From: Tubulanus polymorphus
Lineage: Eukaryota > Animalia > Nemertea
Assembly (NCBI RefSeq): GCF_964204645.1
Contig: NC_134028.1
Location: 12,385,263-12,449,262, forward strand
Reading direction: 5' to 3'
DNA length: 64,000 nucleotides
The notes under the pieces were generated by a model that did no database searches, was not told the DNA's origin, and saw only the letters and a program-made list of their open reading frames with translations. The position numbers and the translations under genes were made by a program. Positions 35,290 to 64,000 of this stretch are shown here, in pieces (the first letter of the stretch is position 1; each line of letters starts with the position of its first letter).

Positions 35290-36340
35290 TTATATATTTT
35301 TAATTTTACTTGATAATATCCATTCATTGAATTTATCTGGCCATCCAACCCATTTTACTAAAGAATATTTTTTTCTTTTAATAGTTTTTGTTTTTAATAC
35401 TTTTTCAATTTTATATTCTTGTTCTAGATTTTCAGTAGTTAAACTTAATTCTTCTTCGTAAAAGTAGCCATCAACTTCTTCACCATCTAAATCTTCTAAT
35501 TTATAGACATATGGTTTTGCTGTTATTACCTTTTTTATTTTATATGTTTCTCTAGTAAAATTTCGATCGTATCCTTTATCAAACATCTTTTTATACTTAG
35601 AAATTCTAACATTTTGACCAACTTTAAATTTAGGTTCACCAAAATCATCTACAAGAAATGCTCCATATGAATTATTCCAAACAATTTCAGCATTTTCAGG
35701 TTTTCTAGCATCAATAGGTTTCATTCCAATAGAAGAATGATAAGAATTATTATATCCTTCTATCAATTTTGGTAAAACATCAATCCATTTAAAAGTATTA
35801 TTTGCTGTAAAATATTTCCACATTCTTGTTCTTAATGTTCCATCAAATCGTTCAACAACTGCTGCTTTTTATCCGATTTTGTTGAAAAATATTTAATATT
35901 ATGAATATCTAAGAGTTCATGAACAAGTGAATTATCAAACTCTTTTCCATCATCAAATTGTATTTTTTCTGGTTTTAGTTTATCATCCGAAAGAAATTTT
36001 CTTAAAACATTTGATGTTTGTACAGCATCTTTTCTATAAAGTGGGAAGCTCCATACATAACGACTAAAAATATCAATTATATTCAATAACCACCAATAAT
36101 CATCATTTTTATATTTTCTAACAATTTTTTTATGTGTTGTGTATGTTGGTTGTTCTAACATAAATTCATTTATATCTTTATATTTAACTAAATTTTGTGG
36201 GATTATCTTATCTAATTTATCTTGTTTTACTTGACGCCATATATTTTTGGTAGAAGAATAAGCAACCGAACTCTCAGGGTTGTAATATAAATTTCTTAAA
36301 TATTGTTCTTTAGTATTAGGAGTTTTTTTTACCACCCATT
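35290..36340 (-). pseudogene. Retroviral-type (rve) integrase with C-terminal chromodomain, frameshifted
   Basis: IDIFSRYVW, IQFDDGKEF, YNNSYHSSIGMKP, LVKWVGWPDKFNEW. Confidence 0.9.
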
Positions 36341-36369
36341 TATATATCGTTAATTTTAACTTTATATTT

Positions 36370-37593: not shown

Positions 37594-37617
37594 TTATTTA
37601 ACAAAAAAATTAATTAT

Positions 37618-39055
37618 TTATTTTTTATTATTTTTTTCTTGATATCTTTTTGATATCATATTCACTAACCCAAAAATAATAGCACTTACAACTGTAATTA
37701 AAAATAAAATAATATGTTCAGCAGCAAAGTTAAGAATATTACCTGCAGATTTCAATATAAAACCAACAATTGATGCAATAATTCCTGGTAAAGCTGCAGC
37801 AGATTTTTTAGATAGTTCCCATAAATATTTTGCTAATTTTTTCAAACCATCCTTAACTTTATCTTGTATAGAATTATTATCATTCGGGGGTTTATCTGGT
37901 TTATTTGGAGTAGGAGTAGATTTTAAAGCATTTGATATTGCTAAACCAATTGTTGTAAATAACATAGTTACAGCTGTTAGAATTGAAAGAATTGTTATTC
38001 CTTCTAATTTAAATAATAACTTTATTCTATCTTTCAATGATATTTAAGAATTTGGTTTTATCAACAAATCTTTAAAAATAACTTTTAATCTATTAATATT
38101 ATAATCATATGATTTTAATAATAATTTAATTTCTTCTTTCTGTACTTCTAAATTATCTTTTAAATTATTAATTTATTTTTCTAAACGTAATTCTTTTTGC
38201 CTATATTCTATTTCATCAATTACTTGATGATCTAAATCAGCCTTTAATTGTTCTATTTCTTTATTTTTATCAGTTAATTCTTTTTCTAAAGATCTCTTAT
38301 ACGTTTATCATGTGCAATTTTATCAGATGCAAGTCTTATACTTTTAATTTCTCTAATTGCTTCAACAGAAAATATATTATTTAAATCTTCTAATTGTTGA
38401 TCTGTTGCATCAATTAATCCATTCGGTAAAAGTTTTTCAATTGGAACTTTATTTGATTTAAGTTTACTAGTTTTGGAAGTTATATTCTGTTCAGTTTCTG
38501 TTTCTGATTTCTTTTTGATTATTTCATATAATTCATTAATTTTTTGTTTAAATACGTCTATATTATCATCTTTTTCTTTTTGCGTAACATCAGTTATTTC
38601 ATTACTATTACTTATTATTTTAATTCTATCTAGTTCTAATTTTTTAAAGTTGATTTTGCTATTATTTTTTCTTCTTTCTTATAAAAGATATCAATATAAT
38701 TATCACCTTTCAAATGATAATACCATTTACCATTATCTAAAAATTTTAATTTATCTGCCAAAGGTCCAACGTTTTCATCATTTATGTTAAATTTAGAAAT
38801 TTCAATTATATGTTTTAATTTAGGTATTTTGTTTAAATCATTTAAATCTTTTTTAACTAAATCTGGGTCTAAATTTTCAGGATTTAATTGTGATTCTGCA
38901 TTTTTAATATAATCAGGCATATTTAAATTATTATTATATCCTGGCTCATTACCATCATTAAAACTTGTTTCACTAAAATCAGGTTGTTGTTCATCAGTTA
39001 TACCAGGTTCATCTAAAGGATCCATTCCAATATCTTCTCCACCTTCTACATCCAT
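37618..39055 (-). pseudogene. Acidic N-terminus / coiled-coil / C-terminal multi-TM protein
   Basis: ORF pieces 38636-39055 and 37618-38037; homologs at 26700-28150 and 62239-63667. Confidence 0.65.
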
Positions 39056-39071
39056 TTATATAATAAAAAAA

Positions 39072-40397
39072 TTAAAATTTAAAATATAATATTCCTCCTA
39101 TAACAATTCCTATACAAGTTAAAGCTAATTTAGTATTTTCATGGAATTTATTATCATTATCATTTTTAATTATATCATGTTGAATATTATCAGTTTTTAT
39201 ATTTTCTTTAGTATTGTAATCTTTTATTTTAGAATCATTATTTAATCTAATATTCTTAGTTTTAGTTTCAGTTGATTGAATATGTTTTTTATTTTTTTCG
39301 CCTTCCATTAATTTTGGAGCAGCAATAATTTTTTTATTTATATCATTTAATCCAAATGAATTATTTATTGTTGCAGTTTTAATTAGATTATTATAACCAA
39401 TTATATTTCCCATCTTTAATACTAAATCATTAGACATAATTAATAGATTAGGGCGTATACAATAATTTAATCTAATATGTGATTTATCTAAATAATTTTG
39501 ATATCTTACAATGTTTTCTGGAATCGATCTATTTTTATCATTATGAATGGAATCTTCAAATAATACTTTAAATTGTTTCTGAGCATCGAATGAAGTGTTA
39601 TCATTTCCAATTATTGGGGATCTTGTTTCAACTTGCGCACCTAAAATACATATCAAATAAGTTCTAATTGATTGATTTATTCTTTGTATTCCAGCTTTAG
39701 TAAAACCTTCACTATTTTCTAAAATGAAATTAACCCAACCATTATTGTTTTGTTGTTGTATATTATTATAATATTTTGGTAATTCATTCCAATTTAGTGT
39801 TCTTATATCTGAATTTGTCATTATTTTTCCAAATTCTTTAGTATACAATATTCCTAATCCACCCATTGTTCCAATTCTTGCTCTAAAATCTTTATTTGAA
39901 TTAATATTAAATTCATTACATATTTTATAAAACTTAGAAAAATTAATATTATTATTCAATTCTTTAAAATATTTTGAACCTGGTAAAGGACATTCTAATT
40001 CATCTAATATTAATTTTATTTGAAAATAAGTATGAAATCTAAAAAGTGATAACATCAATGGTAAACTTGGTTTGTTTAAATGATCATTCCAACTAATTCC
40101 ACATCCTGTTGTTGCGCAATAAACAGCAAAATTTAATTGGTTCTGCCAATACCTCATATTAGATTTTAATAACCATTGTTTTGCCTCATTTAAATTTTTA
40201 AAATTAATTAAATAGACATGAAATATATTTTCCATCTTTGCATTAAAATTATTAGTTTCAGTAACATAAATTTCTAAATTAGTTAATGAATATAAAACTT
40301 CATTTCTATATGTAATATCTTTATTAAAATCTATTGCTGGAATATTATATTTAATTGATTTATTATATTGGAAAGCTTTTGGAAAACTATCTACCAT
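39072..40397 (-). CDS. Conserved hypothetical protein with C-terminal TM anchor
   Basis: Intact 441 aa; WQNQLNFAVYCATTGCG; homologs at 28167-29450 and 63684-64000. Confidence 0.8.
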   Translation of the reverse strand: MVDSFPKAFQYNKSIKYNIPAIDFNKDITYRNEVLYSLTNLEIYVTETNNFNAKMENIFHVYLINFKNLNEAKQWLLKSNMRYWQNQLNFAVYCATTGCGISWNDHLNKPSLPLMLSLFRFHTYFQIKLILDELECPLPGSKYFKELNNNINFSKFYKICNEFNINSNKDFRARIGTMGGLGILYTKEFGKIMTNSDIRTLNWNELPKYYNNIQQQNNNGWVNFILENSEGFTKAGIQRINQSIRTYLICILGAQVETRSPIIGNDNTSFDAQKQFKVLFEDSIHNDKNRSIPENIVRYQNYLDKSHIRLNYCIRPNLLIMSNDLVLKMGNIIGYNNLIKTATINNSFGLNDINKKIIAAPKLMEGEKNKKHIQSTETKTKNIRLNNDSKIKDYNTKENIKTDNIQHDIIKNDNDNKFHENTKLALTCIGIVIGGILYFKF

Positions 40398-40413
40398 TTA
40401 TATAATAAAAAAA

Positions 40414-40848
40414 TTAATAATTTATTAATTCTTTTAATAATTTATCTTGTTCTTCAACTGTTATATGGCCATTTAAACTTATTATATAATCTAGTGTATT
40501 CTTTAATTTATTAATTTCTTTTATATTAGTTTTAATTTTTTCTTTATTACTTTTTATATTTAATTTTGAACTTATACCAGTTAAAACACTTGAACTTAAT
40601 GCTAACACGCCAATTGATATAGCTAAAGGTGTTAATGGACTGAATATTGCTAAAAATGTTATTACAGAACTAATTGTAACCGAACCACTTATAATCAAAT
40701 AATATATAATTTTAGATTTCAAATATTTTTTTTTTTTTATCTTTAAGTCACTTTCAAATTCTAATATTTGTTTTTCTAAATATATTTTTAATTTAGTTTT
40801 GTTTATATCATGAGGAATAATATCAATACTATCAACTTTATCTTCCAT
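40414..40848 (-). CDS. Two-TM coiled-coil protein
   Basis: 144 aa with a hydrophobic hairpin; TAAATG start. Confidence 0.7.
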   Translation of the reverse strand: MEDKVDSIDIIPHDINKTKLKIYLEKQILEFESDLKIKKKKYLKSKIIYYLIISGSVTISSVITFLAIFSPLTPLAISIGVLALSSSVLTGISSKLNIKSNKEKIKTNIKEINKLKNTLDYIISLNGHITVEEQDKLLKELINY

Positions 40849-40867
40849 TTATTTAGAAGAAAAATTA

Positions 40868-41290
40868 CTAATTAGTCAATTTATATGCAACAAATATAAC
40901 AATAACTGTTCCACCTAAAATCCATATTATTTCATATTTCTGTTGTTCATTACTTGGGGTATAATAATCTGATAATTTAGGTTTGTATAGATGTTATTTT
41001 TCTTTATTGGTTACCGCGTAATATAAACTCATTGCATCATCAACTGATTGAAAATCTCTATGTGAAATCTTCTGATCATATAATTCTTAGTTAATATAAT
41101 CCATATAGTTTTGTCTCTTTTCTCTATATTCTTCCGCTGCTTTATTGTATTTCTCTAATGCTAAGTTATGTCTTTTTTGTTCTGTTAATGAACCATTTTT
41201 ATCAATATGCTTAAATAAATAACCACCACCAGTAAATGCTAAAGCGTTAACTATTGCCGATCCTATAATAGTTATAATTGCAGAAGCCAT
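40868..41290 (-). pseudogene. Small membrane/structural protein with internal stop
   Basis: MASAIITIIGSAIVNALAFTGG; homolog at 29917-30331. Confidence 0.65.
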
Positions 41291-41314
41291 TTATTTAGTA
41301 AAATAATTACGCAT

Positions 41315-41536
41315 TTATATGGGAGGAATATATTTTTGTTTTTCCAAATATCCAATAGTTAAATTAGATAAAGTAACTGCTAATGTTAATTTTAAAATAT
41401 CATTCATATCAAATCTATCAACATTAACACTTCCCATTTTAAATACTTTTTTTAATACCATTGAATAACCAACAGTTCCAACTGATAGTAAGGCGCCATT
41501 ATATAATCCAGTTATTATCCACTTATTATCACTCAT
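41315..41536 (-). CDS. Small hydrophobic protein
   Basis: 73 aa; several homologs in the window. Confidence 0.7.
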   Translation of the reverse strand: MSDNKWIITGLYNGALLSVGTVGYSMVLKKVFKMGSVNVDRFDMNDILKLTLAVTLSNLTIGYLEKQKYIPPI

Positions 41537-41539
41537 TTA

Positions 41540-41893
41540 TTAATTAAAAAAATTACTATCTTCAAAATATTTATTTAACTTAGTTATGATTATTTCAACA
41601 TATATTTCATTACTAGTTTCATTTGTATATATTTCAATTATTATTTTTTTAATATCATCGATGATAAAATCTTCGTCTAATTCATAAAATCTTAAAGATT
41701 CTCTAATTAAATTAGTAATCTTTTCTACATTTAAAGTTTCTTTATCTATTGTTGTTTCATACTCAAATGTTGTTTCATTAGAAAATGCAATATTTTTGAT
41801 ATGTGTAATTACATCATTAACGTTAAATTTCATTTCTTTCTCACGTTTAAAATCAAATCCAAAATATATGCTCGGCCCAACAGTTATATTCAT
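41540..41893 (-). CDS. Hypothetical protein
   Basis: 117 aa; homolog at 30582-30833. Confidence 0.65.
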   Translation of the reverse strand: MNITVGPSIYFGFDFKREKEMKFNVNDVITHIKNIAFSNETTFEYETTIDKETLNVEKITNLIRESLRFYELDEDFIIDDIKKIIIEIYTNETSNEIYVEIIITKLNKYFEDSNFFN

Positions 41894-41909
41894 TTATATA
41901 ATGAAAAAA

Positions 41910-42671
41910 TTACTCTCTACATCTTATAACTAATTCATAAATTACAGGAAAGTTATTCAAATCAATTAAATATCCATTGTGATTTCTTATTTCTAATTTA
42001 AAATTATTAAATTGAGGAATGCAAGGTTTAAAATCGCATTCTGTTAAATTATAATTTATTTGAGTTCCAAATTGTTTAACATTTTTTAGCGGTAAAATAT
42101 TTAGTATACTAGAACTACAAATTGTTTCTTTAGTTGCTTCGAAAGTTTTTGTAGGATCGATTTTTAAATTGCAACAAATATAAAAGTGTGTAAAAGGTAT
42201 TAAGTTTGATCTACCTTCTGCGTATGCTGTAACAATATCTGGGTTAATTCCTAACAGTTTACCTAAAGGTTTTCTTACTGTAAATTTAAATTGTTCGTCA
42301 TTAGCTAACCTAATCTTTATTTTATTAGAACTATCACTTTTTAAAATTCTAATACTAAATCCGGAATCACTTCCTAATTTAGCTCGAGCTTTTCTATTAA
42401 TTTCTTGTGCTAATGTATCTAAATTATATAATCCTGGTTTTAAATATATAAAAAACCATTTATTCCTTTGTTTGTAAAAGATTGAAAAAATTAAATGTTC
42501 TAGACTTTTATCCGTTATATTGTAAAATGAGTTACATAAACTTATATTTACTAATTTTAAATCAACACAATTCTTAAATTCTCTATCTAATTGAACTATT
42601 AAATTATGTGATTTATAATTTTTAAGTCTTCTAGAATCAACAAATATTCTGTATTCTTTTAATTCGACCAT
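41910..42671 (-). CDS. Putative minor capsid (penton-like) protein
   Basis: Intact 253 aa; conserved ends with a variable middle across four copies. Confidence 0.62.
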   Translation of the reverse strand: MVELKEYRIFVDSRRLKNYKSHNLIVQLDREFKNCVDLKLVNISLCNSFYNITDKSLEHLIFSIFYKQRNKWFFIYLKPGLYNLDTLAQEINRKARAKLGSDSGFSIRILKSDSSNKIKIRLANDEQFKFTVRKPLGKLLGINPDIVTAYAEGRSNLIPFTHFYICCNLKIDPTKTFEATKETICSSSILNILPLKNVKQFGTQINYNLTECDFKPCIPQFNNFKLEIRNHNGYLIDLNNFPVIYELVIRCRE

Positions 42672-42739
42672 TATTTATAACATAAAAAAATTACCGCTCA
42701 TCACTAAAAATTAATTTTAATAAAATTTTTCCTTAATAA

Positions 42740-44060
42740 ATGGATGAGAAGATACCATGCGAAATTTGTGGTGAACTTCTAAGAAAAAGTAATATGGCTC
42801 GACATATAAAAAAACATGATGAAAATTATAAACCCCCTAAACTAAACTGCCCAAAATGTAATAAATTATTCTCAAGAAATTATGTTAAAAAACATTCAGA
42901 GAAGTGTAAAATTAATGGCGCAACGGCTAATGTTGATAGTAATGAAAGTAATAGTAATTCTGTTGAAGTTGAACCTGAAATTATTTGGAAAAGACCTTTC
43001 TTATTCTATGACAAGGATAATATAAAAGATCATTTCTGCGAGCCTTGTCGAATAAAATATAACCCTGAAAATATAGAAGATTGGGAGAATCATCAATTTC
43101 GTAAAGTACATATAGATAAAATTTCTTATAAATTTGAAACTGAATTCAATGAAAGAAAAAATAGTTTATTAGAAAAAATAAAATATGAGAAAACGTTACC
43201 AGATAATAAAGAAACAGTTGAAAAGTTAGAAAACAATATAATGAATTAACAAGAAAAACATATTATTGTAAATATTGTAAATTGATTATTACAACAAGTA
43301 ATTCAAATCTACATAATAGAACAATAAAACATAAAGAAAACGTAAGAAAATACCAAGAGCTTAATGAAGATCTATTACCAATAAATTATAAACGAAAATG
43401 CCCACAATGTAGTTATGCAACCTTAAGGCAAGAAGGTACTGTGTTATTTTGTAATGAATGTGGATGGCAAAAGAATTTATAGGGTGAAGAAAAAACTAGA
43501 GATTTTCTCATAGAACCAAACTTAAATTATCTGGATGAAATTTTTAAAATATTTTCTATAGAAGATCCGACACCAGAATATATGCAATGGCTTGAAAAAA
43601 TGAAAATGATAGAAAATAAAAATGGTGAAATAACTAAAAAAGATATTATAAAAACAATTATTCCATCAACATTTCACACAAAACAAAAGAAAATGTATTT
43701 ATATTTATTATTTAACGATTATTATGAAAAACCTAAATTAACAGAAGAAGATATGGAAAATATAAAAAAAATATTCAAACAAATATTAATGTATCATTTG
43801 GAAAATAGAATAACAGATTCAATTAATTATGAATTCTTTTTAAATAAGATTGTAAATTATTTAAACATCGATATTATAATTCCATCTGACGAATTAACAA
43901 ACAAAAAGAAACAAAGAGAGCGAGATGAAATAAGATAGAACTTTTTTTAAATGAGAAAAATGAAATGGAAGAACCTAAACAAATTATACAAGAACAATTA
44001 AATGAAAATGAAGAAGCCAATAGTGATTTCGAGTATGATGATATTGATTTTATGTTTTAA
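42740..44060 (+). pseudogene. Multi-zinc-finger protein with acidic tail
   Basis: CEICGELLRKSNMARHIKKH, CPKC..H, CPQC..CNEC; frameshift and stops. Confidence 0.78.
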
Positions 44061-47000
44061 TGGCCATAAGGTAATGTTTTTATACCATCATCTAAAATAT
44101 GCCTTTTATCATCAAATGGATTCAAACTAGTTTTTTCAACTTCATTAATGTACATCTCGTGATCTTCTGATCTTAAACAATTCATTTTGTGTTTCATTAC
44201 AATTTAGTTATATAAACACTTTATATAATCTTGAAATTCTATATGTTTATCAACCACATGTTTTGTCATTCCTTTTAACTTTTAAGCTTCATGATCTTTT
44301 GTTCTATAACTATACATTTTACTTCTTATCCCAACAAATTCAATCATTTCATCACCCCCTAATTCATCTTTAAACTTACCAGGAATCTTTTTATTATCAT
44401 TGCTAAATAGTTCATGATCTTTGGGATAATTGCTAAAATCAAAATGATGTTTTAATGTTTTTAAGTCTTTTGTTATGTCATTTGTCTTGATTTTTAGTAT
44501 GTACGCATCCGTATTTTTGGCTATTAATGGAAATCCACAGTTAAATGTACCATCTTCAGTTGATAAATTATAAACATAATCTGATGGGTTATATATTTCA
44601 AATAAATCTTTAACTTCTTCTGTTAATTCTTTTTCTACATGCCTTAAATTAAAACAATTTGGTTTAGATTTAATTAATTCTATATTCATATTAAATCCTA
44701 ATGAACTATATAATATATTTAATCCTGATATAGCAACTTTTCCTTTCTGTGCAAATGTTATCTTTTTATCCTTTGTAAATTTTTTAGTGCCATCTGCGGC
44801 ATAGAATCCAATGAAGAACCATTTTCTTAAATCATTTTTTGCATTTAATACATAATCTGGTACTATCTTTTCTTTTGTTGAAGTATTACTTTTCACTATT
44901 GCATGAATATAGAATTCATCATTATATTTTATAGCAAAATCTTTAGGATTATTTACAAGTATTCTATAAACTGCTGATGATTTCATAACATCTATGATTT
45001 TAAATGTTTTATGAGAATAAACTTCTTCACAGAATTTCTTAATTCTTTCTAATAATTTTAAGTCTTGATTACATAAATACCAACAATATTTATTACCCCA
45101 AACATAATTATACACACCTGCTGAACCATCACCCATGAAAAATCCTTTGATAAAATATTCTTTTTCGTCTAATGTTTCGGGTTCTATATTATAAATATTA
45201 TCAATAATTTCATCAAATGACATATGATTCATTCTTTGGAAAAATCTTTTATGTAATCATTCATCTCCAATTTTTATATCAGTTGGTTTTATTTCATCGC
45301 CATTTCGTTTAATTAAACTATGACATTCTGTAACATCTACAAACCCTAATTTAGTTCTAACTCTATAGATTTTCTTATTTGTTTTATGCCTAATAATATT
45401 CTTTAATTTTTTCCATCCATTTCTTGTCCAAACATCCATTATCCATTTATTTGTATTAATTCTTTTTCACCATATGAAATATAACATTCATTTTGTTTTG
45501 GAATTATTTCTGAAATTCTTCTTATCAATATTTTATCATTACATTTAAATAATATTGGGGTGTCAGCTGTTACAGAATCAAAATATAATATTTCAATATG
45601 CTTTTCCCCAAAAAGTGGTTGTAAAACATTATAATAAAAATCATACATTAATAATTTTGATACTTCTAAAACAGTTGAACCAATAAATATAGGTTTATTA
45701 AATTTCATTGACGTTCTTTTTAATTTAACTGCTGTTAAATAATCTTCAAATCTTTTATTTCCTAAATGTCTAGGACTTGATTGTAGGTGTCTTAATCTTT
45801 CAGAATTATTTACTAATCCAATATCATTTCTATTTCTAATATTTTCACATGTTTTGCCATAAAAACTATTATTCATTAATTTGAAGAAATCTTTTTCAAA
45901 ATCTGTTTTTGATATGGTTCTCTGTTGAGTATTAAAATCTATATATTTTTCTAACCACTTCGATTGATTAAATTCAATATATCTATGTACTTTCTTTAAT
46001 TTCATTCCTTGTTTTAGATAAAATTTTAACATTCTGTAATGAACAATATAATTGTATTTATTATTTTGAGTAAGTATTAAGTTTTCTGTAAAAACATGAT
46101 CTTTCGGTTTTATTTTCTTCTGGTATTCACTTAAATAACTATCATCTACAGTTAAATGTTCTGGGCAATAAGGTAAGTTTCTTGTTTTAAACTTTATATT
46201 TTCAGGATATTCTGAATCAACTACAAAGAAATAACCAATTGGTGCTTCATCTTTTAAACTCGCAATTGCGCTTTCCCAATCAGTTTTATCATCATTTTCA
46301 ACTTCTGTTAATATAAAATTTTTATATGGTTGAGGTTGCATCATTGCCCAACCATATAAATTATTGGCGTCATTATATAATAATTTATATTCATCATTTG
46401 CTTTAAAATACCTATCTCCCATAACACCACTAATTCCACCTCTAATTGATTTTTCAAATAATAAAACCATATCTGGTTCTTTAAATAAATCTAATTCTAC
46501 ATTTGTATATTTTAAACCACATTGCCAGGTTAAACCAGGACTAGAGTAGCAATAACAATAACAAGGATCAACATTAAAATGATTCAAATTAACTTCCCTA
46601 AATTTTTCAAATATGTCAGCTTATATCATAACATCTGATTTTAAATATAAATCAACTAATTCAATGATTTTTCATCTTAAAATGGTTCCAAATATTTAAT
46701 GTTCTATTAAACATTTCGTCTTTCACATACTCCTCTTTTAATTGATCATAAAATTAATCTTTTAATAATTCTGTTACATTAAAATCATTGTGTGTTTTAT
46801 AAAATGAATAAGGAATTGCGCCTTTTTATCTCAATAATTTAAAATCTTTTTCATTTGGATAGTAATATTGAGTTATAACAAAATCATTATCAACTAAACT
46901 TTTTGATAAATTATCTAATGAACTTGCTAGAAATCTATAAGAATCTAAAAATCTAATGCAACCAAATTGAAAATAAATATAATTTTCAGATGTTTTAGCT

Positions 47001-49121
47001 AATAGTTTAAAATCATATTTTCTTACATTTACACCATTCATAGCATTATATTCTTCTATTTCCTGATCAATTGCACCCAATTTTCCCGATAATTGTTTTA
47101 TAAATAGATGGGTATCATAGCCTGATAAATTATGAAATAATATTGGTACGAAATTAACTTTCTTAGCTTGTAAATTGCAATCTTCATGAGCAGCTCCACG
47201 ATATTTTGAATTTAAATGATCATGATCTCTAACTTTTTTATCAAATGAATAAAAACGTTTTTCACAATAACAACAATGAGTTGCATAATTAAAATCAATT
47301 TCATCTTCTTTTGTCATAACTATTCTTTTATTTTTGTTTAATAATTTTGCAAAATCACTTTCTAATTCAATCATTTTGTCACAAAAATCATTAACTACAT
47401 CTTCACCTCTAAAAGAAATATATTGACTTTCATATAATTCGGGATAATTTGATTTGATGTAAATTCCATAAGCAGCAGCTCTTGATGAACTTTTTTAATT
47501 GTATTTATAATTGGCGGGTCTTGTGTTGTGTCTTCATTTAATTCATTTCCTTTATCCATTGATTTTAATAATTGCTTTTTGTTATATATTTTTTTTCTAT
47601 CTTGATCAGTTAATTCTTTATTCAACGATTCAAAATCCCCATAAATTACAAATGGAACAATATTCTTAAATTTATGATTAGTAAATTTAAATTTATAATC
47701 TTTTTCTGTTGGCATTATTAATTTACAAAAATCTGTATTATCACATAATTCTTTATGTTTTAATAATGTATTCTCAGTCATAAATTTAGATAAACATTTT
47801 CTACATAGATAAATTTTATTATGGTGATCACTTTCTGTTCTAAAGAATAAATCAATTTGTTTTAACCACATATAATGTTCATTTTCATCTTTTTTTGTAA
47901 TATAAAAAATCTATAGCATTTTCATCATCATAATATTCTGTTAAATATAAAGCTTCCAATGTATAATCTTTAATATTTTCACCTTTTGTCTTTGGTAATT
48001 GCATTAATTCAAATACATTTATTCTTAAATTATTAACTTTTTCTATTTTAGGAATCATTTTTATAGTTACTGGATATTGATCAATTTTATATAATGTTTC
48101 ATATTTCCGGTAATTTCTTATTCTAAAACTATGCGTCATATCTTCTGTTGGGTGTAAACAACTAATAATTGACCATAGAAAACATTTATTATCTTCATTT
48201 TGAACATTTATTACTGCTTTTGTTGTAAATGGTAATTTAATATAAGATGATGCTTTAATATCCTTTTCTGTTGTAAAGTTTGAATCATTTTTAAACATTT
48301 TATTACTTTTTGATGTTTTATTCCTTTTTGTATTGTAAACATTTAAATCTAAATATATAATTTCATTCAATGTTAAGCCAGAACCCTCAAAATATCTTTC
48401 TTCAATATGACGTTTAAATTCATTAAATATTTTTTCTCTTTTATTTGTGTTTTTGAAATTATTTCTTCAGAGTGTGTTTGAATATTATAATTCATTTTTT
48501 CTTCTGACTTTATAAAACTTACTTTCCCAGAGATACTAATTTTTGGATATTCAACATCTGTTATCAAATCTAGTATTTTTTCTATTATTTCATTAAATTT
48601 ACTATAATCTTCTATTGTTGTTCCTTTAAAAAATCTAAATATAATAGCTGCAGGACCAATTTTACTACGTAATGTTTCTAAAATTTCAATTGTATCTTTT
48701 ATTTCTAGTGAATCAATATAATTTCTAACATTTTCCATGTAAGGTTTATTTGAAATGGATTTAGTTTTTGAAGTTGGTTTTTTTACTTGTTGAGGTTTAT
48801 CATCAAAATAATCTTTTCCTAAAACATTATTACTCAAATTTTGGCGGTGTTTTTGTGATTCAATATGTCTATTATAATTCCTTTTTACTATAAATTCATT
48901 ACAAACTTCACATTTTATTTCATCCACATTCATATTTTCTAATCTTTCTTTTCTTTCATTGGAATTTTCTGGAGTTTCAAAATCTATTACATTTTTTATA
49001 TGATTTGCAGTTTTTCATGTCGTGATTTTTGGGATTTATCGATGTATTTTTTACAATATTGGCAATAATATTGATTTTTATTTACATTATTGTTTTCTGG
49101 CTGGTGTTCATTCTCCCCCAT
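44057..49121 (-). pseudogene. pPolB polyprotein copy 3 (Zn fingers, terminal-protein region, OTU-like Cys/His segment, exonuclease with EndoVII-like insert, polymerase with intein)
   Basis: NKCFLWSI..HYMW, FVIYGDFES, CCYC..VRDHDH..YRGAAHEDCN, FHNLSGYD, DANNLYGWAM, KLMNNSFYGK; start codon lies inside the TIR. Confidence 0.95.
44513..45576 (-). mobile_element. Intein (~355 aa) with LAGLIDADG homing endonuclease in pPolB copy 3
   Basis: YFD-[SVTADTPI..DVTECHSL..YFIKGFFMGDGS..WFFIGFYAADG..VYNLSTEDGTFNCGFPLIAKN]-TDAY. Confidence 0.92.
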
Positions 49122-49206
49122 TTATTAGGAAAAAAAATTGCTTGTGGTGATGAGTGGTGTCTCGACCGCTCGACCTCTGGTATGAAAGCCCACTTTCCCA
49201 ATTACT
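49112..49206 (-). repeat. Right TIR ending ...CCCAATTACT (5'-AGT terminus)
   Basis: Matches the left TIR and the copy 2 end at 21430-21489. Confidence 0.88.
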
Positions 49207-53550: not shown

Positions 53551-53955
53551 TAGGGGTTTAGTTGGTTCAGGCCAAAGGTCGAACGGTCGAGCTCATTAAA
53601 AAATAAATATTAAAAGTAATTTAAAACTATAATATATTTTCATAGCCGTGTGCATTTTATATTATAACTAAATATTTATTCTAAGATATTAATAATTTAA
53701 ATTTTAAAAGCATATCGTATTAAATCAATTGGTCGCTCCGCTTCGCTGCCGCTCCACTCCGCGACCAATTGATTTATTTACAATACACAAATTCATATAA
53801 TCAAATATATTCAAATAATAATAATCATTCTATTATTTAACTAAAATACACACGGCTATGAAAATATATTATAGTTTTAAATTACTTTTGATATTTATTT
53901 TTTAATGAACTCGACCATTTAACCTTTAACCTGAACCAACTAAACCCCTATTACT
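53551..53955. repeat. ~405-bp fold-back hairpin
   Basis: ~105-bp outer stem, 15-bp inner stem AAATCAATTGGTCGC/GCGACCAATTGATTT, GC-rich loop. Confidence 0.9.
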
Positions 53956-54091
53956 CTTAAAATATTTATATATATGAATAACATATATATGAATAACATA
54001 TATAAGTAATTAGAAAAGTAGGCTTTCAGATCAGAGTACGAGCTCTTATAGAATAGATATGTAGATACATTTTAAACATTATTTCAATATT

Positions 54092-54278
54092 AGTAATAGG
54101 GGTAAAAGGCTTTCAGATCAAAGGTCGAAGGGTCGAGCTCGTAAAAAATGAAAATAACAATAATTTATAGTTGAATTAGTCGCGCACACTCCTAATTCAA
54201 CTGTAAATTATTGTTATTTTCATTTTTACTCACTCGCCCCTTCAACCTTTAACCTGAAAGCCTATTACCCCTATTACT
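54092..54278. repeat. 187-bp fold-back hairpin AGTAATAGGGG...CCCCTATTACT
   Basis: ~87-bp stem with loop TCGCGCACACTC. Confidence 0.9.
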
Positions 54279-54527
54279 CTTAAAATATTCATATATATAT
54301 GAATAACATTTAAATGAATAACATTTAAATTGACAGATTATTCAATATAAAAGTGTAAGCTCTTATAGAATAGATATATAGATATATTTACAACATTATT
54401 TCAATATTCATATTTGTATGAGTTAGATTTTTAAACATTAAAAGTGTTAGTAAAGTGTGATTGAAATAATTCATATTTAAATCATTGAACTTCTAAAATC
54501 AATTTAGTAAAAAAATTTGATATTAAA

Positions 54528-55197
54528 ATGGAATCAGAACAACCACAAACTATCAATATTACAAATAACACTGGTGTCATAAACATATACTACAAGAAGT
54601 GTTCTAAATGTGAATTAGATAAATTAGCTATAACAGAATTTAATAAGCGTAAGATTAGCAAAGATGGTTTTCAATATTGCTGTAAAACTTGTACTAAACT
54701 ATATACCAAACAATATCGAAAAGATAATAGAGAAGCTTATAATGATTATATGACAGAATATATGAGAGAAAGATATCAAACAGATCTTAATTTTAGATTA
54801 AAACAATGTTTAAGATCTAGATTAACACAATTATTCAACAAAGAAACACATTCAGAAACACTATCTAATTTATTGGGTTGTTCAGATTAATTCTTAAAAT
54901 CATGGATAATATATCAATTCGACGATAAAATGAAGATAGATAATTATGGTGAATACTTTCATATTGATCAAGTGTTGCCGATTTCTAAATTTGACATGAA
55001 TGATGAATACAATAAAAAAACTTATTTGGAATTGGAATAATCTAAGACCTTTAGAAAAGAAAGTAAATATAATTGAATCTAATAAACTAGATTTACAGTT
55101 ATATTTAGATCAACTGGATAAAGCAAAGACATTTGTTGAATTATGGAATAGTATTTCACAGAATCAACCGCATTCTGAGGTTTTAATCAGTGGTTAG
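54528..55197 (+). pseudogene. HNH-type endonuclease of a kind common in large DNA viruses, disrupted
   Basis: CSKC..EF..DGFQYCCKTC, LRSRL, LLGCS, NYGEYFHIDQVLPISKFD, WNNLRPLEKKVN. Confidence 0.75.
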
Positions 55198-56174
55198 AAA
55201 GCCGGCAATTCTATTTGAGCTTTGTATGTATATAATACATAGCTTTTGCTTACTACTAAAACATATGTTGCCAAATATATCTTGTTTTAAATTCTAAAGA
55301 ATTAATTAACTTCATCACAAAGAACATCTGTGCAGAAATAATTAGTTTGGTCGAACGTGCGCCACGTCGGCAGTTAGAGATCAACTTTCACATACATAGT
55401 ACGTATTGGATATTCTCTCTCAAAACACAGTTTACAGTTCTAAATCTAAGTGTAAGTACCGTTTTTTGTAGTTATTATGAAGTAGGGAAACCTTTAAACA
55501 TATTTAAGTACAGTAATTCATTTTCACGACATCTTTTAGATTAAAATGGAATACAAAGATGAACCAGAAATTCTAAGCCAACCATCGGAAAAGGAACTAA
55601 TGCTGCTGGATAGTGAAACTCAGGAATCAATAGAAATGGAGGATGAAACTCTCGTAACACACTGAAGGTCTTTGTAATATAGATATCAAAAAATGTAATC
55701 TCGATTGTATATATCTGTTTTAATATTGTATTGTTTACTGTTAACTAAGTATTGCGCAATAACCGGTCCGATTGAACCGCTTTTCTATTGTTCTCCATTG
55801 TTCTATTATTGATCGTTGTTGACGGAAACAGCTGCTCAATATTGATTGGTTACAGTTCTATGTTTGAATGTTGTAGTTTACAGAATTAAAATATAACTGT
55901 GTATTGCGCAATAACCGGTCCGATTGGACCGCTTTTCTATTGTTCTCCATTGTTCTATTATCGATCGCTAAAATTTACATAATAAATATATGTGTTTATG
56001 AAATAATATTTCCACCAGTCGTTTCGTTGAATTGATTTTCAGTTGAGGATTTATTGTCGAGGATCCGAAATGACTTATCAAAAGCAGCGAGGAATGAAAA
56101 AGGATGACGTTAGTCGAAGAAATGGAAGAGGATTCTAAAATATTAATCAATTTTATTAAAAATTTGATTTATAA

Positions 56175-56390
56175 ATGGAAAGGAATGATGAATACAATAA
56201 AAAACTTATTTGGAATTGGAAGAATTTAAGACCTTTAGAAAAGAAGGAAAACATAATTAAATCTAATAAACTAGATTTACAGTTATATTTAGAACAGTTA
56301 ACAAAGGCAAAGAAATTTATTGATCAATGGAACAATGATCCAAATAATGAACAATACGTTGAGGAATTTGATATCAAGGATCCGAAATGA
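56175..56390 (+). pseudogene. Second, internally deleted HNH copy
   Basis: Matches 54995-55150 and has a similar upstream sequence. Confidence 0.7.
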
Positions 56391-56692
56391 CTTATCTGGA
56401 CAGTTATAATTACTGCTCCTAATAGATAAAGAAAAGTAGTGAGATATCAAATAGAATTCAAAAAAAAGTATTTAAAAAACAATAACTTCAACTAGCTAGT
56501 GAATTCTATTATATTTTTAATATTTTCTTTTCAAAAAGAAAATACTTTATATTTTGAATAGATTCAAATAGAAATTCTTTAAATTCAAAAAGCTAGTATC
56601 AGTAGTCAATACTAGAATTCTTTAACTTTAACTATCTAGTATCATTTGAAGAATACTTATAATATTTTTCTTATTAAATTTCTCTAATATAA

Positions 56693-57295
56693 ATGACAAA
56701 GAAATCGAGTAAGAATAGTATTGATATTGAAAAAACATTAGATGATTTGGGCATTAGTGATAATAAGGATCCAGTGGTTTCTAATTCTATTCAAGTTAAT
56801 AACAATATTGATTATGAATACTATTTATATTGTTAACACCATCTTGAGTTACTAATTGCTGGCGGGAAATCTAAACAATTTTTAACTAAGACCATTACTT
56901 TTCAAGAACTAGACTCTATGAAACCAGATAAAGTAATAAAATATTTTAAGATTTATGAAGAAGCTAGATTGGCTCGAATAAATGATTCTATTTCAGATAG
57001 TATTATAAAATGTTATTCAAAATTATGTAACCGGTTAATGAAGATTAATGATGAAAATAAATTATATAGTGATTTGAAAAATGACTCCTTAGTTATGACT
57101 GAATTACAAAAATGGGTTGGATATGCTTCATTTCAATTAGGATCGGTTATGACATTAATTTCTACCGGCGTCATAACATTTTCGAACATCAAACCTATGG
57201 AATATAAATCAGGTAAGAACGAAACAGATGTACTACAACCAAACAGTGAAACAGAAAATGAATCAGAACAAAAATTAACTAAAATAAACGAGTGA
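56693..57295 (+). pseudogene. Homolog of 33766-34371 with internal stop
   Basis: YEYLLYC*HHLELLIAGGK, FKIYEEARLARINDSIS. Confidence 0.7.
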
Positions 57296-57656
57296 TGGCG
57301 TTAAGAAAAAGCCTAGATCCGAGAAACAAATTAAATGGGCAAGAGAATTAGGTAAAAGATCTTCAGAATTAAAAAAAGCTAAGAAAAAGAAATTAACTGA
57401 TATAAATGAATCCCAGACTTTATCTGATGTTGATTCAAATAATAATCCATCTAATTCTTCTAATGCTGGAAGTAATTATAAATTATATATTACAACTGGA
57501 TTAGTAACAGTTATTATATTATCCGGTGTAATATATAAATCAAAATTCAAATCTGATGATAAAGATGATTCCAATGACAATAAACCTATCATACCAGAAA
57601 ATAAGTCAAATCATAAAGTCATTGAAACTAAATCTAAATTATTATCAATGGATTAA
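57295..57656 (+). pseudogene. Small basic membrane protein
   Basis: KKPRSEKQIKWARELG plus a TM helix. Confidence 0.55.
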
Positions 57657-57662
57657 AATAGA

Positions 57663-58746
57663 ATGAAAAAAGAACAATATTTAAGAGATTTATATTATAA
57701 CCCAGAAAGTGAAGTATCATATTCTAACGTTTCAGAATTATGGAATAAAATTAAATCTGATAATGAAAATGGTAATATAAAATATAGTGAACTAAGATTA
57801 TGGTTACAAAATCAACCAACATATCAAATCCACAAGAAAATGGATAAAACTAATTTAACAAGAAAAGTTATGGTTTCATATATCGATCAACAATGGCAAG
57901 CAGATTCAATTGACATGAAGAACTTAGAAGAATACAACAAAGGATATTTCTGGATATTAAATGTTATAGACATATTCAGTAGATACGCATGGTCAATTCC
58001 AATCAAAAATAAAACTGGAATAGAAGTGACAAATGCTTTTAAATCAATATTTAAAGAAGCTATTCCAGATAAGATACAATTTGATGAAGGTAAGGAATTT
58101 TATAACAAACATTTCAAAAAACTATTATCCGATAACGATGTAGAATATTTTTCAACACATTCAGATAAAAAAGCATCTATTATAGAAAGATTTAATAAAA
58201 CATTGAAAACTAGAATGTGGAAATATTTTACTGCTAATGAAACGTATAAATATATCGATGTGTTAGATGATTTAGTGAAAGGTTATAATAATTCTAAACA
58301 TAGTTCTATAAATATGAAACCTATACAAGCTAGAAAAGAAGATAATTCAGAAATAGTTTGGAATAATTTATATGGTGTGTTTGTTACACATGATTTCGGA
58401 GAACCTAAATTTAAAATGGGAAAACACGTTGGAATATCTAAATATAGAAAAACATTTTATAAAGGTTATACCCCAAATTTTACAGAAGAAATATTTAAAA
58501 TTAAAAAGATAATATTAACTAAACCTTTTGTTTATAAACTAGAAGATCTAAAAGATGAAGAAATATAAGGTTATTTCTATGAACAAGAATTATCACTTGT
58601 ACCAAATCCAGATGAAATAGAATACAAAATAGAAAAAGTATTGAAAACAAAAACTCTTAAAGGAAAAAAGTATTCTTTGGTGAAATATAAAGGGTATGAT
58701 AATAAATTTAATGAATGGATTTTATCTAGTAAAATTAAAAGAATAA
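57663..58746 (+). pseudogene. rve integrase with chromodomain (one internal stop at 58566-58568)
   Basis: D-D-E triad WQAD, IQFDEGKEF, IIERFN; downstream LVKYKGYDNKFNEW. Confidence 0.92.
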
Positions 58747-59356
58747 ATGAATAAAGATTTATTCATATTTGAACCGCATAATATGTTAGTTACTGGTGTA
58801 ACCAATTGTGGTAAAACACATTTCATATTAGATTTGTTAGAAACTATTTATAAGAATCATTTTGATAACATTATATTATTTTGTCGTACTTATGAAATGA
58901 ATAAAACATATAATAGAGGTATAGTTAAGATGAAAAAGTTTATTATATTAGATCCTAAAACAGTAAAAGAAAATTTAGATAATTGTATAAAAATAGCAAT
59001 TGATACTTATAAAGGATCAAATACATTATTCATTGTAGATGATTGCGCAAATTTACATGATTCAAAAGTTAGAGAAAGTGTGTTATGTTATCTAGCTTTC
59101 TCTGGAAGACATTTCGGGATATCAACATGGGTTTTAAATCAAAAATATAATTCAATTGTTAAAGACTTTAGGGAGAATATAAGTTTCTAGTTTTATTTTA
59201 TAACAAAGATAAAAAATCTATGCAACAATCATTGGAAGAAAATCAAATTATACCTACTGAGTTACAAGATGAAAATATGAATAAATTAAAGAATAATAAA
59301 GGTTCAAAATTATTACTGAGACTACAATTTCCCTGTGAATATAAATTTATAAAATA
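58747..59356 (+). pseudogene. Packaging ATPase, frameshifted
   Basis: GVTNCGKT, LFIVDD, SGRH. Confidence 0.88.
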
Positions 59357-59384
59357 AAATTTATAATTTGGAATATTATAGAAA

Positions 59385-59755
59385 CTAATTTATATATCTA
59401 TGTACTAGACGTACGAGTAAGAAAGTAAGATTCTTGCCAAGAAAGTAAGAAAGTAAGAATCTTGGTAAGAATTCTTACGTACGTCTAGTATATAGATATA
59501 TAAATTAGTTTTATAATAATTATTCTAAATTTAAATTATAAAAATGAATAAATTATATGTTTTCTCTTAATAATAATAAAAATAGATTATATTATAACTA
59601 TTTCTATACTAAGATTAATAATTTTATGTTTTTAATTTTTATGAAAACTATTATATATATATATCTATGTACTAGTCGTACGAGTAAGAAAGTAAGATTT
59701 CTTGGATTCTTACTCGTACGTCTAGTATATAGTTATATAAATTAGTTTTATAATA
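59385..59755. repeat. Palindrome array between convergent gene blocks
   Basis: TACTAGACGTACGAGTAAGAA...TTCTTAC(TC)GTACGTCTAGTA, twice. Confidence 0.85.
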
Positions 59756-59756
59756 A

Positions 59757-60910
59757 TTATTCTAATTTTGTTTCTAATATATTTATAAAATCATCTCTGT
59801 TTATATCTAATTCACCAAAAGGTAGATTTATTAATTTTAATTGAGCCATCTTAACATAATTATTAGTAGGTAAATGAGCTTTTTCTCTTAATTTTTCTAA
59901 GTATTCATCAAAATCATCATAATCAAAATCAAATGATGTCCAAAATTATTTATCAGATACCTTAAATCTATCTTTCTAAAATATAATAATTTATATATTT
60001 GTTTAGTATTATCTTCTGCATAAGATAATAATTTATCAAATAACAACTTATAGAATATATAATATTGGTTAGTTTTAGGATTAAAATATTTGATATATTT
60101 ATTTGGGTTATTTAACAATGGTATCATACTCACCATTTTATAAACATTAATTAGATGTAACTTTGATTTATAATGAGTATTTTCATCAACAGGTTCAATT
60201 TTCTTATTACAATATTGGCACATTTCATTTCTTTCTATTTCTTCTAATTTCTTTTCATGTTCTTCTAACTTCCTTTCATTTTCGATATGCGCTTGAGATT
60301 TTTTATGTTTAGAAAAATTACTTTTAGAAATATCTAAATCACAAATGTTACAATGTTTTTTAGAATCATCAATTGTTTCATTATCATTAGTTTCAATTGT
60401 ATCAACATTATCTGTTATATTATCTATGGTATCATTTGTTTCAATTGTATTAACATTATCTATGATATTATCTATTATATTATTATCAGATATATTATTA
60501 TCATTATTATTCTTTTCTTTTTCTATATATTTATTTGATTTCTTATGTGATGCCCAATTTTTATATGATATATATTTCTTACATACATCACAATATTTTT
60601 CATTTGTCTTTTTGGTTTTGATATCAGGTTCAATCTTATCATTATTAGATGTAGAAGGTATTACATTATTAGATGTAGTAGGTATTACATTATTAGATGT
60701 AGTAGGTATTACATTATTATCAATTACATTACTTAAATTATCAACAACTTCACTTTTATTATTATCTATTTCTATTAGTTTAGTTTTATAATTTTTTAAA
60801 ATAGGATCAAATATCAAAGCTATATTACAAGGTATTACATAATATAAACCATCCTTATTTTCATGTGTATCGATGTATGGAATACGTTTATATACTTTAC
60901 CTCCTTCCAT
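59757..60910 (-). pseudogene. Multi zinc-finger (matrin/U1-like spacing) protein, frameshift near the C-terminus
   Basis: CDVC..SHKKS, CNIC..KHKKSQAH, CQYC..HYKSKLH. Confidence 0.72.
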
Positions 60911-60942
60911 TTATTATATAAATTTTTATTAAAGTTAAAATT

Positions 60943-62198
60943 TTAATACATAACACTATTTAATTGAGAATTTACAATATTTAATTGCGCTTCAGATATA
61001 ATATAAATATGCATTTTGAAATTTAGGCTTCCTTTTTTCTTTGTCATGAATAATTGTATTCCATCTTTAGTATTTTGTAATTTTTTCCCAGAACCATGTA
61101 ATGAATTATCCTCTGTTGTTCTAAAATCTAACCATAATTCATATTTATTACCGGTATAATAATCAATTTGATTAATGTTACAATTTTCAGATGATTTCAC
61201 TTCTTCATTCATAAAATGTTTTCTAATTTCTGGCCATTGATCTATCATTCTCATTCCTTGACAAAATATTTTATTTGCTATTCCTTCGATAGTTATTTCT
61301 ACTTTTGTTATTTCAGGATTATAATACTTATCAACCTGTATTGCACCATTATAATATGTTGCAATGGTAAAAAATATTAATATACCTTTAATAGATCTTC
61401 TTGGGAAGTTAATATTCTCATTAATAATTTCATCATTTGCATTAATAGTTACAGTTTTAAATGTATCAATATAATCATATAATAATGAAAATCCTTGATT
61501 GTATTGAGTTTGAATTATACTTGAAATATTTTCATCAGTTACTGTATCATATTCTAAACATATATTCGATAATTTATAACTCATATCTTTATTAACGCTA
61601 GATATTACAATTTCATTAACAGGAGCAAATGTTATTTCGAATATAACATCTTCTTGAATTGTGTATTTATATAAAGGCGCATTATTATTTATCAATTCAA
61701 AGTCTAATGGAATTTTATATTTGCTTCCATAAATCTTTTTAATCAAATTATCAATTTATCTACAGAATTAGTTAATATTGCATTGTGTGCTTCTGATCTT
61801 AGTTTATTTTGGTTTTCTGATTGGATTCCTTGAAATATCATATTATTTCTATTTTCTTTAGTTAACCATAAATCTTTTTAATGCATAAATAAATTATAAT
61901 CATCTAATGAGAAAACTGTTTCCGGACCGATCTTTATAGTTAATTTTTTAATCAAATATCTTCCAACATTATCAACAACATAATTATTATTATTACCGGT
62001 TACTTTTATATCGGCTGATAAATAAATACTATTTGGAACATAAAAAGTATTTTGTGTTAATCGAGGATTTCTAACATATAAAGTTTCATCGGGATTAATA
62101 TTAGAAGGGTTATGAGTAATTATATGATGTGATCTTTCTGCTTAAATAGCATTAGATATTCTATGATTCTTAGAAGGATTGATATAACTCCCACTCAT
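60943..62198 (-). pseudogene. Major capsid protein (putative double jelly-roll)
   Basis: Close homolog of 36370-37593. Confidence 0.68.
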
Positions 62199-62238
62199 TT
62201 ATTTAACAAAAAAATTAATTATTTATTTTTGATCATGT

Positions 62239-63667
62239 TTACTTGATATTTTTTGATATCATATTTACTAACCCAAAAATAATTGCACTTACAACTGTAA
62301 TTAAAAATAAAATAATATGTTCAGCAGCAAAGTTAATAATGTTTCCTAGAGATTTTAATATAAAACCAACAATTGATGCAATAACTCCTGGCAATGCTGT
62401 AGCAGATTTCTTTGATAGTTCCAATAAATATTTTGCTAATTTCTTTAAACCATCCTTAACTTTATCTTGTATAGAATCTTTGTCATTCGGGGGTTTATCC
62501 GGTTTATCGGGAGTAGGAGTAGATTTTAAAGCATTTGATATTGCTAAACCTATTGTTGTAAATACCATAGTTACAGCTGTTAGAATTGAAAGAATTGTTA
62601 TTCCTTCTAATTTAAAGTATAATCGTATTCTATCTTTCAACGATATCTTAGAATCTGGTTTTATCAACAAATCTTTAAAAACATCTTTTAATCTTTTAAA
62701 ACTATTACCATATTCTTTTAATAATATATCTCTTTCACCTTTCAGTACTTCTAAATTATCTTTTAAATTATCAATTTCTTTTTCTAAACGTAATTCTTTT
62801 TGCCTATATTCCATTTCACCAATTACTTGATGGTCTAAATCATACTTTAGTTGTTCTATCTCTTTATTTTTATTTTTATCAGTTAATTCTTTAAGTACTA
62901 ATTTTAGTATCTCTTATACTTTTATTATGTGCAATTTTATCAGCTTCATTTCTTATACTAATAATTTTTCTAATTGCTTCATCAGAAAATATATTTAAAT
63001 CTTCTAATTCTTGATCTGTTGCATCAAGTAATCCATTTGGTAAAAGTTTTTCAGTTTGAACTCTTCTTGATTTAATTTTACTAGTTTTGGAATTATCAGC
63101 TTCTTTAGGAATTTAATTATCTTAAAAAATTTAGCATTGCTTTGTTTAAATTCTCTTCTATTATCAATTATCTCTTTTTCTGTAACATCAGTTATAACAT
63201 CCTTAATGATTTTCTTAATTCTATCTGGTTTTAATAAATTAAAAGTTGATTGTGTTATTATTTTATCGTTACTTTTAAGATTTGAAATCCTAAAATAATA
63301 GTTGCCTTTCAATTTCCAATAATAATCGCCATTTAAATATTTCAAATCTTCTACTAAATAATCCATACCTTTATTTGTTATATTGAAACCAGATCTTTTT
63401 AACATTGGTTTAAAATCGCTAGCAATTTCATTATATTTTAATTTTTTTTTCTAATTCTGGTACTTCATTTTGAATATCTATCCTCGATTTAGCTCCTCTA
63501 ATATATTCATCTGTTGATGGGGTTTTTGAACCAGGAACAACTTCTGGTAAATTAGTATTATATTCTGGCTCATTATCATCATTAAAACTTGCTTCATCAA
63601 AATCATGTTGTTGTTCATCACTTATACCAGGTTCATATAAAGGATCTACTCCACCTTCTACATCCAT
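62239..63667 (-). pseudogene. Coiled-coil / multi-TM protein
   Basis: Homolog of 37618-39055. Confidence 0.68.
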
Positions 63668-63683
63668 TTATATAATAAAAAAA

Positions 63684-64000
63684 TCAAAATTTAAAATATA
63701 ATATTCCTCCGATTACAATTCCTATACAAGTTATAGCTAATTTAGTATTTTCATGGGATTTATTATCATCATTTAGTTTAATCATATCATGTTGAATATT
63801 ATCAGTTCCAATATCACCGTGTGGGTGCCGTACGGCACCATTTTCTGATGTATTGTAATCTTTTATTTTAGAATCATTATTTAATTTAATATTATTAGTT
63901 TTAGTTTCTGTTGATTGAATGTGTTTTTTATTTTTTTCACCTTCCATTAATTTTGGAGCAGTTATAATCTTTTTATTTATATCATTCAATCCAAATGAAT
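63684..64000 (-). CDS. 3' end of the 441-aa conserved protein homolog
   Basis: APKLMEGEKNKKH..CIGIVIGGILYFKF. Confidence 0.7.
   Translation of the reverse strand, partial: SFGLNDINKKIITAPKLMEGEKNKKHIQSTETKTNNIKLNNDSKIKDYNTSENGAVRHPHGDIGTDNIQHDMIKLNDDNKSHENTKLAITCIGIVIGGILYFKF

Follow-up and report, generated by a model that had tools for sequence, protein, structure and literature searches.

What are the long fold-back hairpins that stand one behind the other between 53.5 and 54.3 kb, each carrying the end sequence of a Polinton-like element and each leading into the same flank? A preliminary description made from the letters alone read them either as self-priming hairpin telomeres that keep the recognition end of an element or as site-specific mini-Polintons. 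The window, by which we mean the whole stretch of 64,000 nucleotides that was analyzed, turned out to be a nest of decayed Polinton-like elements with retrotransposon insertions. Its elements fall into two types, A with plain ends and B with hairpin ends, and their features are given below.

12011..12707, minus strand: H4, left end of element B'', with an inner arm of the H1 type (12510-12707), flank and tandem repeats
21430..21489, minus strand: plain type A end of a second PolB-bearing copy
21490..32154: element B', with a palindrome array (23365-24283), capsid module (capsid gene 25519-26655), gene X and H3; left end cut by the type A end at 21489
31626..32041, minus strand: flank of H3 together with gene X (31626-31968)
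32051-32154, minus strand: H3, terminal hairpin of 104 bp with its inner arm from 32042; right end of element B'
32911..49206: type A element, with plain ends (32911-32988 and 49114-49206), integrase, ATPase and capsid genes (capsid gene 36373-37590) and a broken PolB (44282-49014)
53551-53955, plus strand (feature drawn from 53549): H1, terminal hairpin of 405 bp, outer arm at left, inner arm ending at 53955
53722-53775: GC-rich inner stem-loop of H1
53956..54091, plus strand: inner flank of H1, truncated by H2, from alignment with the uninterrupted H2 and H4 flanks
54005..54042, plus strand: bare terminus remnant, nearer to type A ends
54092..54278, plus strand: H2, complete terminal hairpin of 187 bp, AGT opening both arms; left end of element B
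54279..54527, plus strand: inner flank of H2, AT-rich repeats of variable length, followed by a conserved stretch that closes with the first ATG
54528..64000: body of element B, with broken HNH-like frames, integrase, ATPase, palindrome array and capsid gene; continues past the window
57663-58748: rve integrase of B (rve match 57663-58565, Pfam E 3.6e-09)
58747-59354: packaging ATPase of B
59340-59787: palindrome array of B
60946-62195: major capsid gene of B

Remains of a BEL/Pao-like retrotransposon occupy 49207-53548, between the type A element (A2) and B. Within another type A copy, 1784-6584 is a near-perfect tandem triplication (99.5%, period ~2146 bp), which is either a recent duplication or an assembly effect.

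All three hairpins of the preliminary description are present, and as DNA they fold far better than shuffled sequence: H1 at -111.5 kcal/mol (z -22.6; 0 of 100 shuffles as good), H2 at -66.1 kcal/mol (z -18.8; 0 of 200) and H3 at -45.3 kcal/mol (z -12.9; 0 of 200). Ten matches to the arm core occur in the 64-kb window against 0.03 expected, seven of them hairpin arms and three type A ends. The shared flank after each inner end (with one extra TA after H2 compared to the other hairpins), the loop common to H2 and H3, and the bare terminus copy at 54005 were also found as described; what had been missed was a fourth copy, the inner arm and flank at 12510-12707. The surviving outer arms of H1 and H3 are short by 3-5 and 9 bases, respectively. 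That of H3 is cut by LINE-type sequence, and H4 is cut at its loop by an unrelated palindrome. A piece of LINE reverse transcriptase (RVT_1, E 7.7e-27) abuts H3 within 32155-32700, and the 160-bp imperfect palindrome at 12708-12867 has its start precisely within H4's GC-rich loop.

The ends at H2 and H3 are alike in arm, loop and flank and in the sequence from there as far as the first ATG, and the conserved part of the H2 flank appears to be a promoter. An 85-92 bp repeat in the inner flank, present in 1-4 copies before different first genes (12011-12396, 21718-21914, 54403-54508), is likely a promoter unit with variable cargo behind it. Relative to the flank, the loops of H2 and H3 lie the same way round, which rules out a flip/flop pair. 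A three-hairpin MAFFT alignment misplaced H3 and was left out of the comparisons.

Sequencing reads were used to ask which side of a hairpin is constant, drawing on 24 of the 682 rows of loose ends, 40 of the 221 rows of differences and 15 of the 197 rows of joints. In run X6 (1934 million letters), 509 reads carry unrelated DNA before the outer arm at 53551 (agreement 0.47) and 1197 do so before H2 at 54092 (agreement 0.34), while 633 leave before the outer arm at 53566 (agreement 0.76). Loose ends before outer arms number 2339, where a rough estimate from the summed arm depth gives ~2440-2690 for one free end per hairpin and ~4900 for two, and none of the six X6 rows listed has loose ends behind an inner arm. 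On that inner side, read joints from 54295-54307 and from 53982 to 54475-54488 continue through a flank of variable length. At the outer side, H1 interrupts a gag-like frame of the retrotransposon at about 53548, as expected of an insertion end. One X1 contig spans this junction with no differences, and reads cover both arms, so that an assembly artifact was rejected. In X6, the arms reach a depth of 700-2800, compared to ~4 for the unique retrotransposon flank. With single-copy depth taken from that one flank, there are likely several hundred hairpin copies, 840 by simple division, a figure uncertain two-fold or more.

Because the DNA before the outer arms is unrelated and the DNA inside is constant, the integrated end must be the outer AGT arm, and the hairpins are very probably the outer ends of the type B family of Polinton-like elements. 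In H1, H2 and H3, the palindrome sits within the terminal repeat at the outer junction. The proposal of site-specific mini-Polintons is not supported: the shared flank is the inner part of the terminal repeat, running into a start codon (H2, H3), and the variable side is the outer one. The telomere proposal holds insofar as these are element ends bearing the AGT end sequence; a closed telomere of the poxvirus type does not fit, the palindrome being open and its outer arm joined to host DNA.

The stacking of two hairpins and a bare terminus at 53.5-54.3 kb is likely a one-off series of nested insertions in the flank of an earlier element. H2 follows the truncated flank of H1 at a point that is uninterrupted in H4. 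Just before H2, depth falls to ~50 and almost none of those reads match the letters of the window there, from which we conclude that the arrangement is likely near single-copy. Seven X2 contigs carry unrelated DNA before 54005 (agreement 0.52), and the terminus at 54005-54042 is likely what a deletion has left of a third nested insertion. For the stack and this terminus together, the simplest reading is that elements inserted into one another and were later partly deleted.

The hairpins are built of terminus-like arms, as the preliminary description had it, and the two arms are not equivalent, outer and inner copies showing fixed differences. We numbered the arms in register from AGT; the asymmetry rests on the seven arms in the window, three outer and four inner. 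Columns 10-25 follow the hairpin, with 0-1 of 16 differences between the arms of one hairpin and 5-10 of 16 among H1, H2 and H3. Columns 26-35 follow the arm: all four inner arms are identical, and each differs from each of the three outer arms at 3 of 10 positions. Compared to type A ends over these same columns, outer arms differ at 2 of 10 and inner arms at 5 of 10, the outer arms having C, as plain type A ends do, where inner arms have T. Orientation is the same in all seven arms and in the H2 and H3 loops. That columns 10-25 change together while the core differences stay fixed argues that pairing has been maintained and a small asymmetry kept. Columns that follow the hairpin, set beside columns that follow the arm, point to the bases a protein reads at the element end, and this arm-specific core is the new, testable detail of the locus.

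On the strand that reaches the element end with its 3' terminus, and on no other, the C/T differences form G·T wobbles. Of the 23 arm-to-arm substitutions, 14 give G·T on that strand and 3 on the opposite one, the remaining 6 being transversions; the strand bias has p=0.013 when counted naively and shrinks to 7:3 (p=0.34) with shared sites counted once. C-to-T is also the commonest mutation, which weighs against over-reading the bias. The 3'-end strand folds better in all three hairpins, by 10.5, 7.5 and 6.3 kcal/mol, and strand differences of 0.3-6.7 kcal/mol in five control palindromes overlap the value for H3 and come close to that for H2. In the folded form, the inner AGT is the pairing partner of the ACT at the 3' terminus, and the flank is left to serve as template; H2, the complete copy, has 14 perfect terminal pairs.

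The genes behind the hairpins place type B beside a plain-ended relative in the same genome. Type A elements have short plain terminal repeats, with an AG(T) start at both ends of one element, and in type B elements two gene blocks converge on a palindrome array. Hairpins are found on both sides of this layout, each on a different copy (H2 at left, H3 at right). From the array onward, B' is colinear with B (80% over 4.7 kb), and B'', starting at H4, has first genes in common with the left part of B'. The packaging ATPase matches Pox_A32 (E 9e-12), and Capsid_N gives a weak match (E 7.5e-04) on the capsid gene of type A, to which the genes of B and B' are 92-94% identical. The capsid genes of A, B and B' form one clade (100/100), and the integrases of A and B each fall with separate foreign loci (99/99 and 98/99; 7 rows, root open), a pattern that points to module exchange within the host. 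The one named eukaryotic capsid relative is from Mactra antiquata (38%); together with the BEL- and LINE-like neighbors, it suggests that the host is probably an animal. Further capsid relatives, P0008 and its cluster (57%), come from short contigs in assemblies labeled Bartonella sp. QHWL and probably represent host contamination of those assemblies. An adenain-like cysteine protease had no Pfam match among 26 window frames and 20 further frames, several conserved frames being unnamed.

The palindrome arrays of type B (23365-24283, 59340-59787) could be two-way terminators or internal origins. Related loci of the same layout have palindromes of other sequence at this spot (L001 3684-3875, L002 3092-3223, L004 3183-3259), and type A has plain tandem repeats instead (34404-34696). 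A close relative, L003, encodes a deoxynucleoside kinase at 10343-10981 (Pfam dNK E 1.7e-31). Gene X, next to H3, has a predicted fold (pLDDT 83) with uniformly weak matches to OB folds (best Z 5.4, best PDB E 0.03), the top PDB row in Foldseek being PRD1 P12 (E 0.03), and its sequence search gave no Pfam or PDB match. A homologue adjoins the left end of type A (33021-33299). On the strength of the model, gene X is likely an OB-fold single-strand binding protein, which would suit types A and B alike if both pass through a single-stranded stage, and which gives no means of choosing among the explanations weighed below.

In the visible parts, polymerase genes go with the plain ends. Type A encodes a pPolB (PF03175, E 5.7e-05 on one piece). 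A search of the window with seven pieces of it returned 47 hits, of which 46 lie within type A regions and the last is a 37-residue match elsewhere (E 0.007). No clear PolB hit was obtained in the visible parts of B, which runs off at 64000, or of B', whose left end is cut, and no unmapped gap of >1.2 kb occurs in B' (21490-32154) or visible B. Type A carries its PolB after the same genes that are visible in B, and B could carry one beyond 64000. Judged from these partial copies, type B may do without a polymerase of its own. Neither integrase nor ATPase was found in B', truncated as it is by the type A end; B' may be a non-autonomous copy served in trans. Scanned frames of the incomplete elements gave no Pfam hit to an HUH/NS1/Rep nickase or helicase and contained only broken HNH-like frames, and no primase-helicase or PolA gene was recognized in B or B', both incomplete. 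At its polymerase motif C, the type A PolB is split by an insert that carries a LAGLIDADG domain (Pfam E 2.3e-06; 44282-46620, 16742-18900, 7302-8139). The ends of this insert look intein-like by eye, and it is likely an intein in a Polinton polymerase.

The best overall explanation, to which we give an even chance, is that type B ends act as 3' hairpins that prime their own copying and that their inner arm no longer works as a site for the integrase; for the priming role specifically, our confidence stops a little short of even. In a displaced or packaged single strand, the 3' tip would fold back onto the inner AGT; its 3' OH would then stand where the flank begins, ready to be extended inward by a host polymerase or by the type A polymerase in trans. 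The C-type outer arm would be recognized by the integrase, and the T-type inner arm would pair by wobble and escape recognition, the three C-to-T differences probably stopping it from serving as a second integrase site. A small mismatch is put to similar use at the parvovirus left end (PMC1185569). Unless one form is selected at integration, simple hairpin resolution should bring the T arm to the outside, and no such T-outside (flop) arrangement exists among integrated copies in the window.

A wider extension of this explanation is unlikely as a whole. It would make type B an animal Polinton lineage without protein priming, having no polymerase of its own, self-priming 3' hairpins copied by the host, a wobble-disabled inner arm, its own integrase, capsid exchange with pPolB Polintons and perhaps the internal palindrome array as an origin. 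If true, a parvovirus-like replication mode would operate inside a Polinton capsid. The copying of Polinton ends is so far a model and not a result, and plain- and hairpin-ended sister families that share capsid genes, in hundreds of copies in one genome, make directly countable the link between end, polymerase and integrase that a 2026 protist preprint proposes.

The main rival to self-priming, which we consider rather unlikely, is that type B is copied by ordinary protein priming with a pPolB, its own or that of type A in trans, and that the fold-back is a template to repair or protect the 3' tip. The outer arm retains AGT and a core only 2 of 10 columns from the ends of PolB-bearing type A, the putative single-strand binding gene adjoins both kinds of end, mobile polB-less Polintons are known in insects (bioRxiv 10.1101/2025.02.07.637071, accessible text), and fold-back repair of protein-primed ends has been shown in Streptomyces (PMC5449611, accessible text). 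Such repair would also account for arms that change together. However, type A manages without hairpins, stems of 50-200 bp are unnecessary for repair, and arm-on-arm copying should erase the three fixed differences that are still there in all seven arms. The same differences bear on a quite improbable reading, that a single snap-back accident in a type B ancestor left the hairpin as a relic with no function, which has since been carried within the terminal repeat while fold-back conversion now and then restored its symmetry. The accessible part of a protist preprint (bioRxiv 10.64898/2026.07.28.741278) names as its alternative that strands annealed by accident once single-strand breaks had formed, stem length and interior vary widely (104-405 bp), and the wobble bias is weak once shared sites are merged. 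Yet the hairpin has been retained in at least three diverged subfamilies and hundreds of copies, and conversion on either side of a persistently different core is hard to obtain without selection.

If the structure acted as RNA instead, an outward transcript would fold into a long G·U hairpin serving as a decoy or small-RNA precursor, and the wobble-bearing strand is indeed the strand of any such transcript. This is very improbable: adjacent genes read inward, the four Rfam matches on 53400-54600 score 22-28 bits against thresholds of 60-100, and the hairpin stops exactly at the AGT end, a precision that an RNA role does not need. Least credible, and largely refuted, is that the hairpins are MITE-like mini-Polintons, each with two terminal repeats, inserting at a preferred site in the AT-rich flank. 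Every hairpin does read AGT...ACT like a tiny element, H2 does lie inside the H1 flank where H4 is uninterrupted, and free copies with two C-type arms would map onto the outer arm, where a minority could be present. Still, the flank is one-sided in all four copies, reads carry mutually unrelated DNA ahead of the outer arms (agreement 0.34-0.47), and loose-end counts match one free end rather than two. The constant inner side and the one-ended counts likewise argue against ordinary free MITEs, and none of the ten core matches in the window is a free-standing hairpin. Free MITEs are not the rule, and there may be a minority of free copies.

Among known systems, parvoviruses offer one comparison. 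In MVM and LuIII, according to the accessible text of PMC1185569, the 3' hairpin primes the host polymerase, the arms differ by a small mismatch that leaves one active as an origin and the other inactive, and the left end is reported in one orientation. Type B ends resemble this in 3' hairpin geometry, arm mismatch and single orientation, a likeness that may amount to analogy at most and not to membership; unlike parvoviruses, these are integrated elements of >10 kb with an integrase, and no NS1/Rep nickase was found. In the terminal-protein telomeres of Streptomyces, 3'-strand palindromes of a linear replicon fold back and can be extended to repair the tip, but those telomeres are bacterial, contain several short palindromes and need Tap and Tpg (PMC5449611, as far as the accessible text goes). 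Poxvirus telomeres have mismatched terminal hairpins with a function, covalently closed and in flip and flop forms (PMC8956199, accessible text), whereas the type B palindrome is open and has one orientation.

Animal Polinton/Maverick elements (adintovirus-like) share with type B the rve integrase, A32-like ATPase, capsid genes and, as judged from a left and a right end on different copies, AGT ends and TIRs. The neighboring type A has the Polinton/Maverick pPolB and belongs to one capsid clade with type B. Polintons are described with plain TIRs of 100-1000 bp and protein priming (PMC4196379, accessible text), unlike type B with its long hairpin within each end, internal palindrome array and no pPolB in the visible parts. 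The accessible text of PMC8502044, PMC6431247, PMC4196379, PMC11296320 and PMC8504770 describes no animal Polinton with terminal hairpins, and such hairpins are likewise absent from that of PMC12220804, PMC12747079 and bioRxiv 10.1101/2025.02.07.637071. A literature survey by title and abstract start yielded no animal case, although the founding Polinton papers or Repbase may mention palindromic ends earlier, and no paper joining Polintons with terminal palindromes beyond the 2026 protist preprint. Arm patterns had 0 matches in viral-contig and genome-contig collections, and integrase and capsid searches of viral contigs confirmed 0 of 7 and 0 of 71 candidates. A metagenome scan gave 43 loci, among which neither the arm core nor any terminal hairpin occurs; the sequences of the closest four, L001-L004, do not extend as far as the element ends.

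This hairpin-ended, Polinton-like family is of a kind reported months ago in a protist, and priority is uncertain. The accessible part of that preprint (bioRxiv 10.64898/2026.07.28.741278) describes terminal palindromes in Halocafeteria seosinensis virophages (subtypes 1, 2, 5 and 6) as well as in PLV subtype 4, links them to pPolB absence and particular integrases, and proposes hairpin priming. There the host is a protist, the capsids are those of virophages and PLVs, and the palindrome is 52 nt in the example given, compared to 104-405 bp here. The Halocafeteria elements encode other replication genes, as far as described, and none was recognized in the incomplete B and B'; the accessible text makes no mention of a fixed difference between outer and inner arms, which is present here. 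In both cases, the palindrome lies inside the TIR beside the host junction of an element with an rve integrase, and as in Halocafeteria, the integrases of our plain- and hairpin-ended types stand in separate groups while their capsid genes form one clade.
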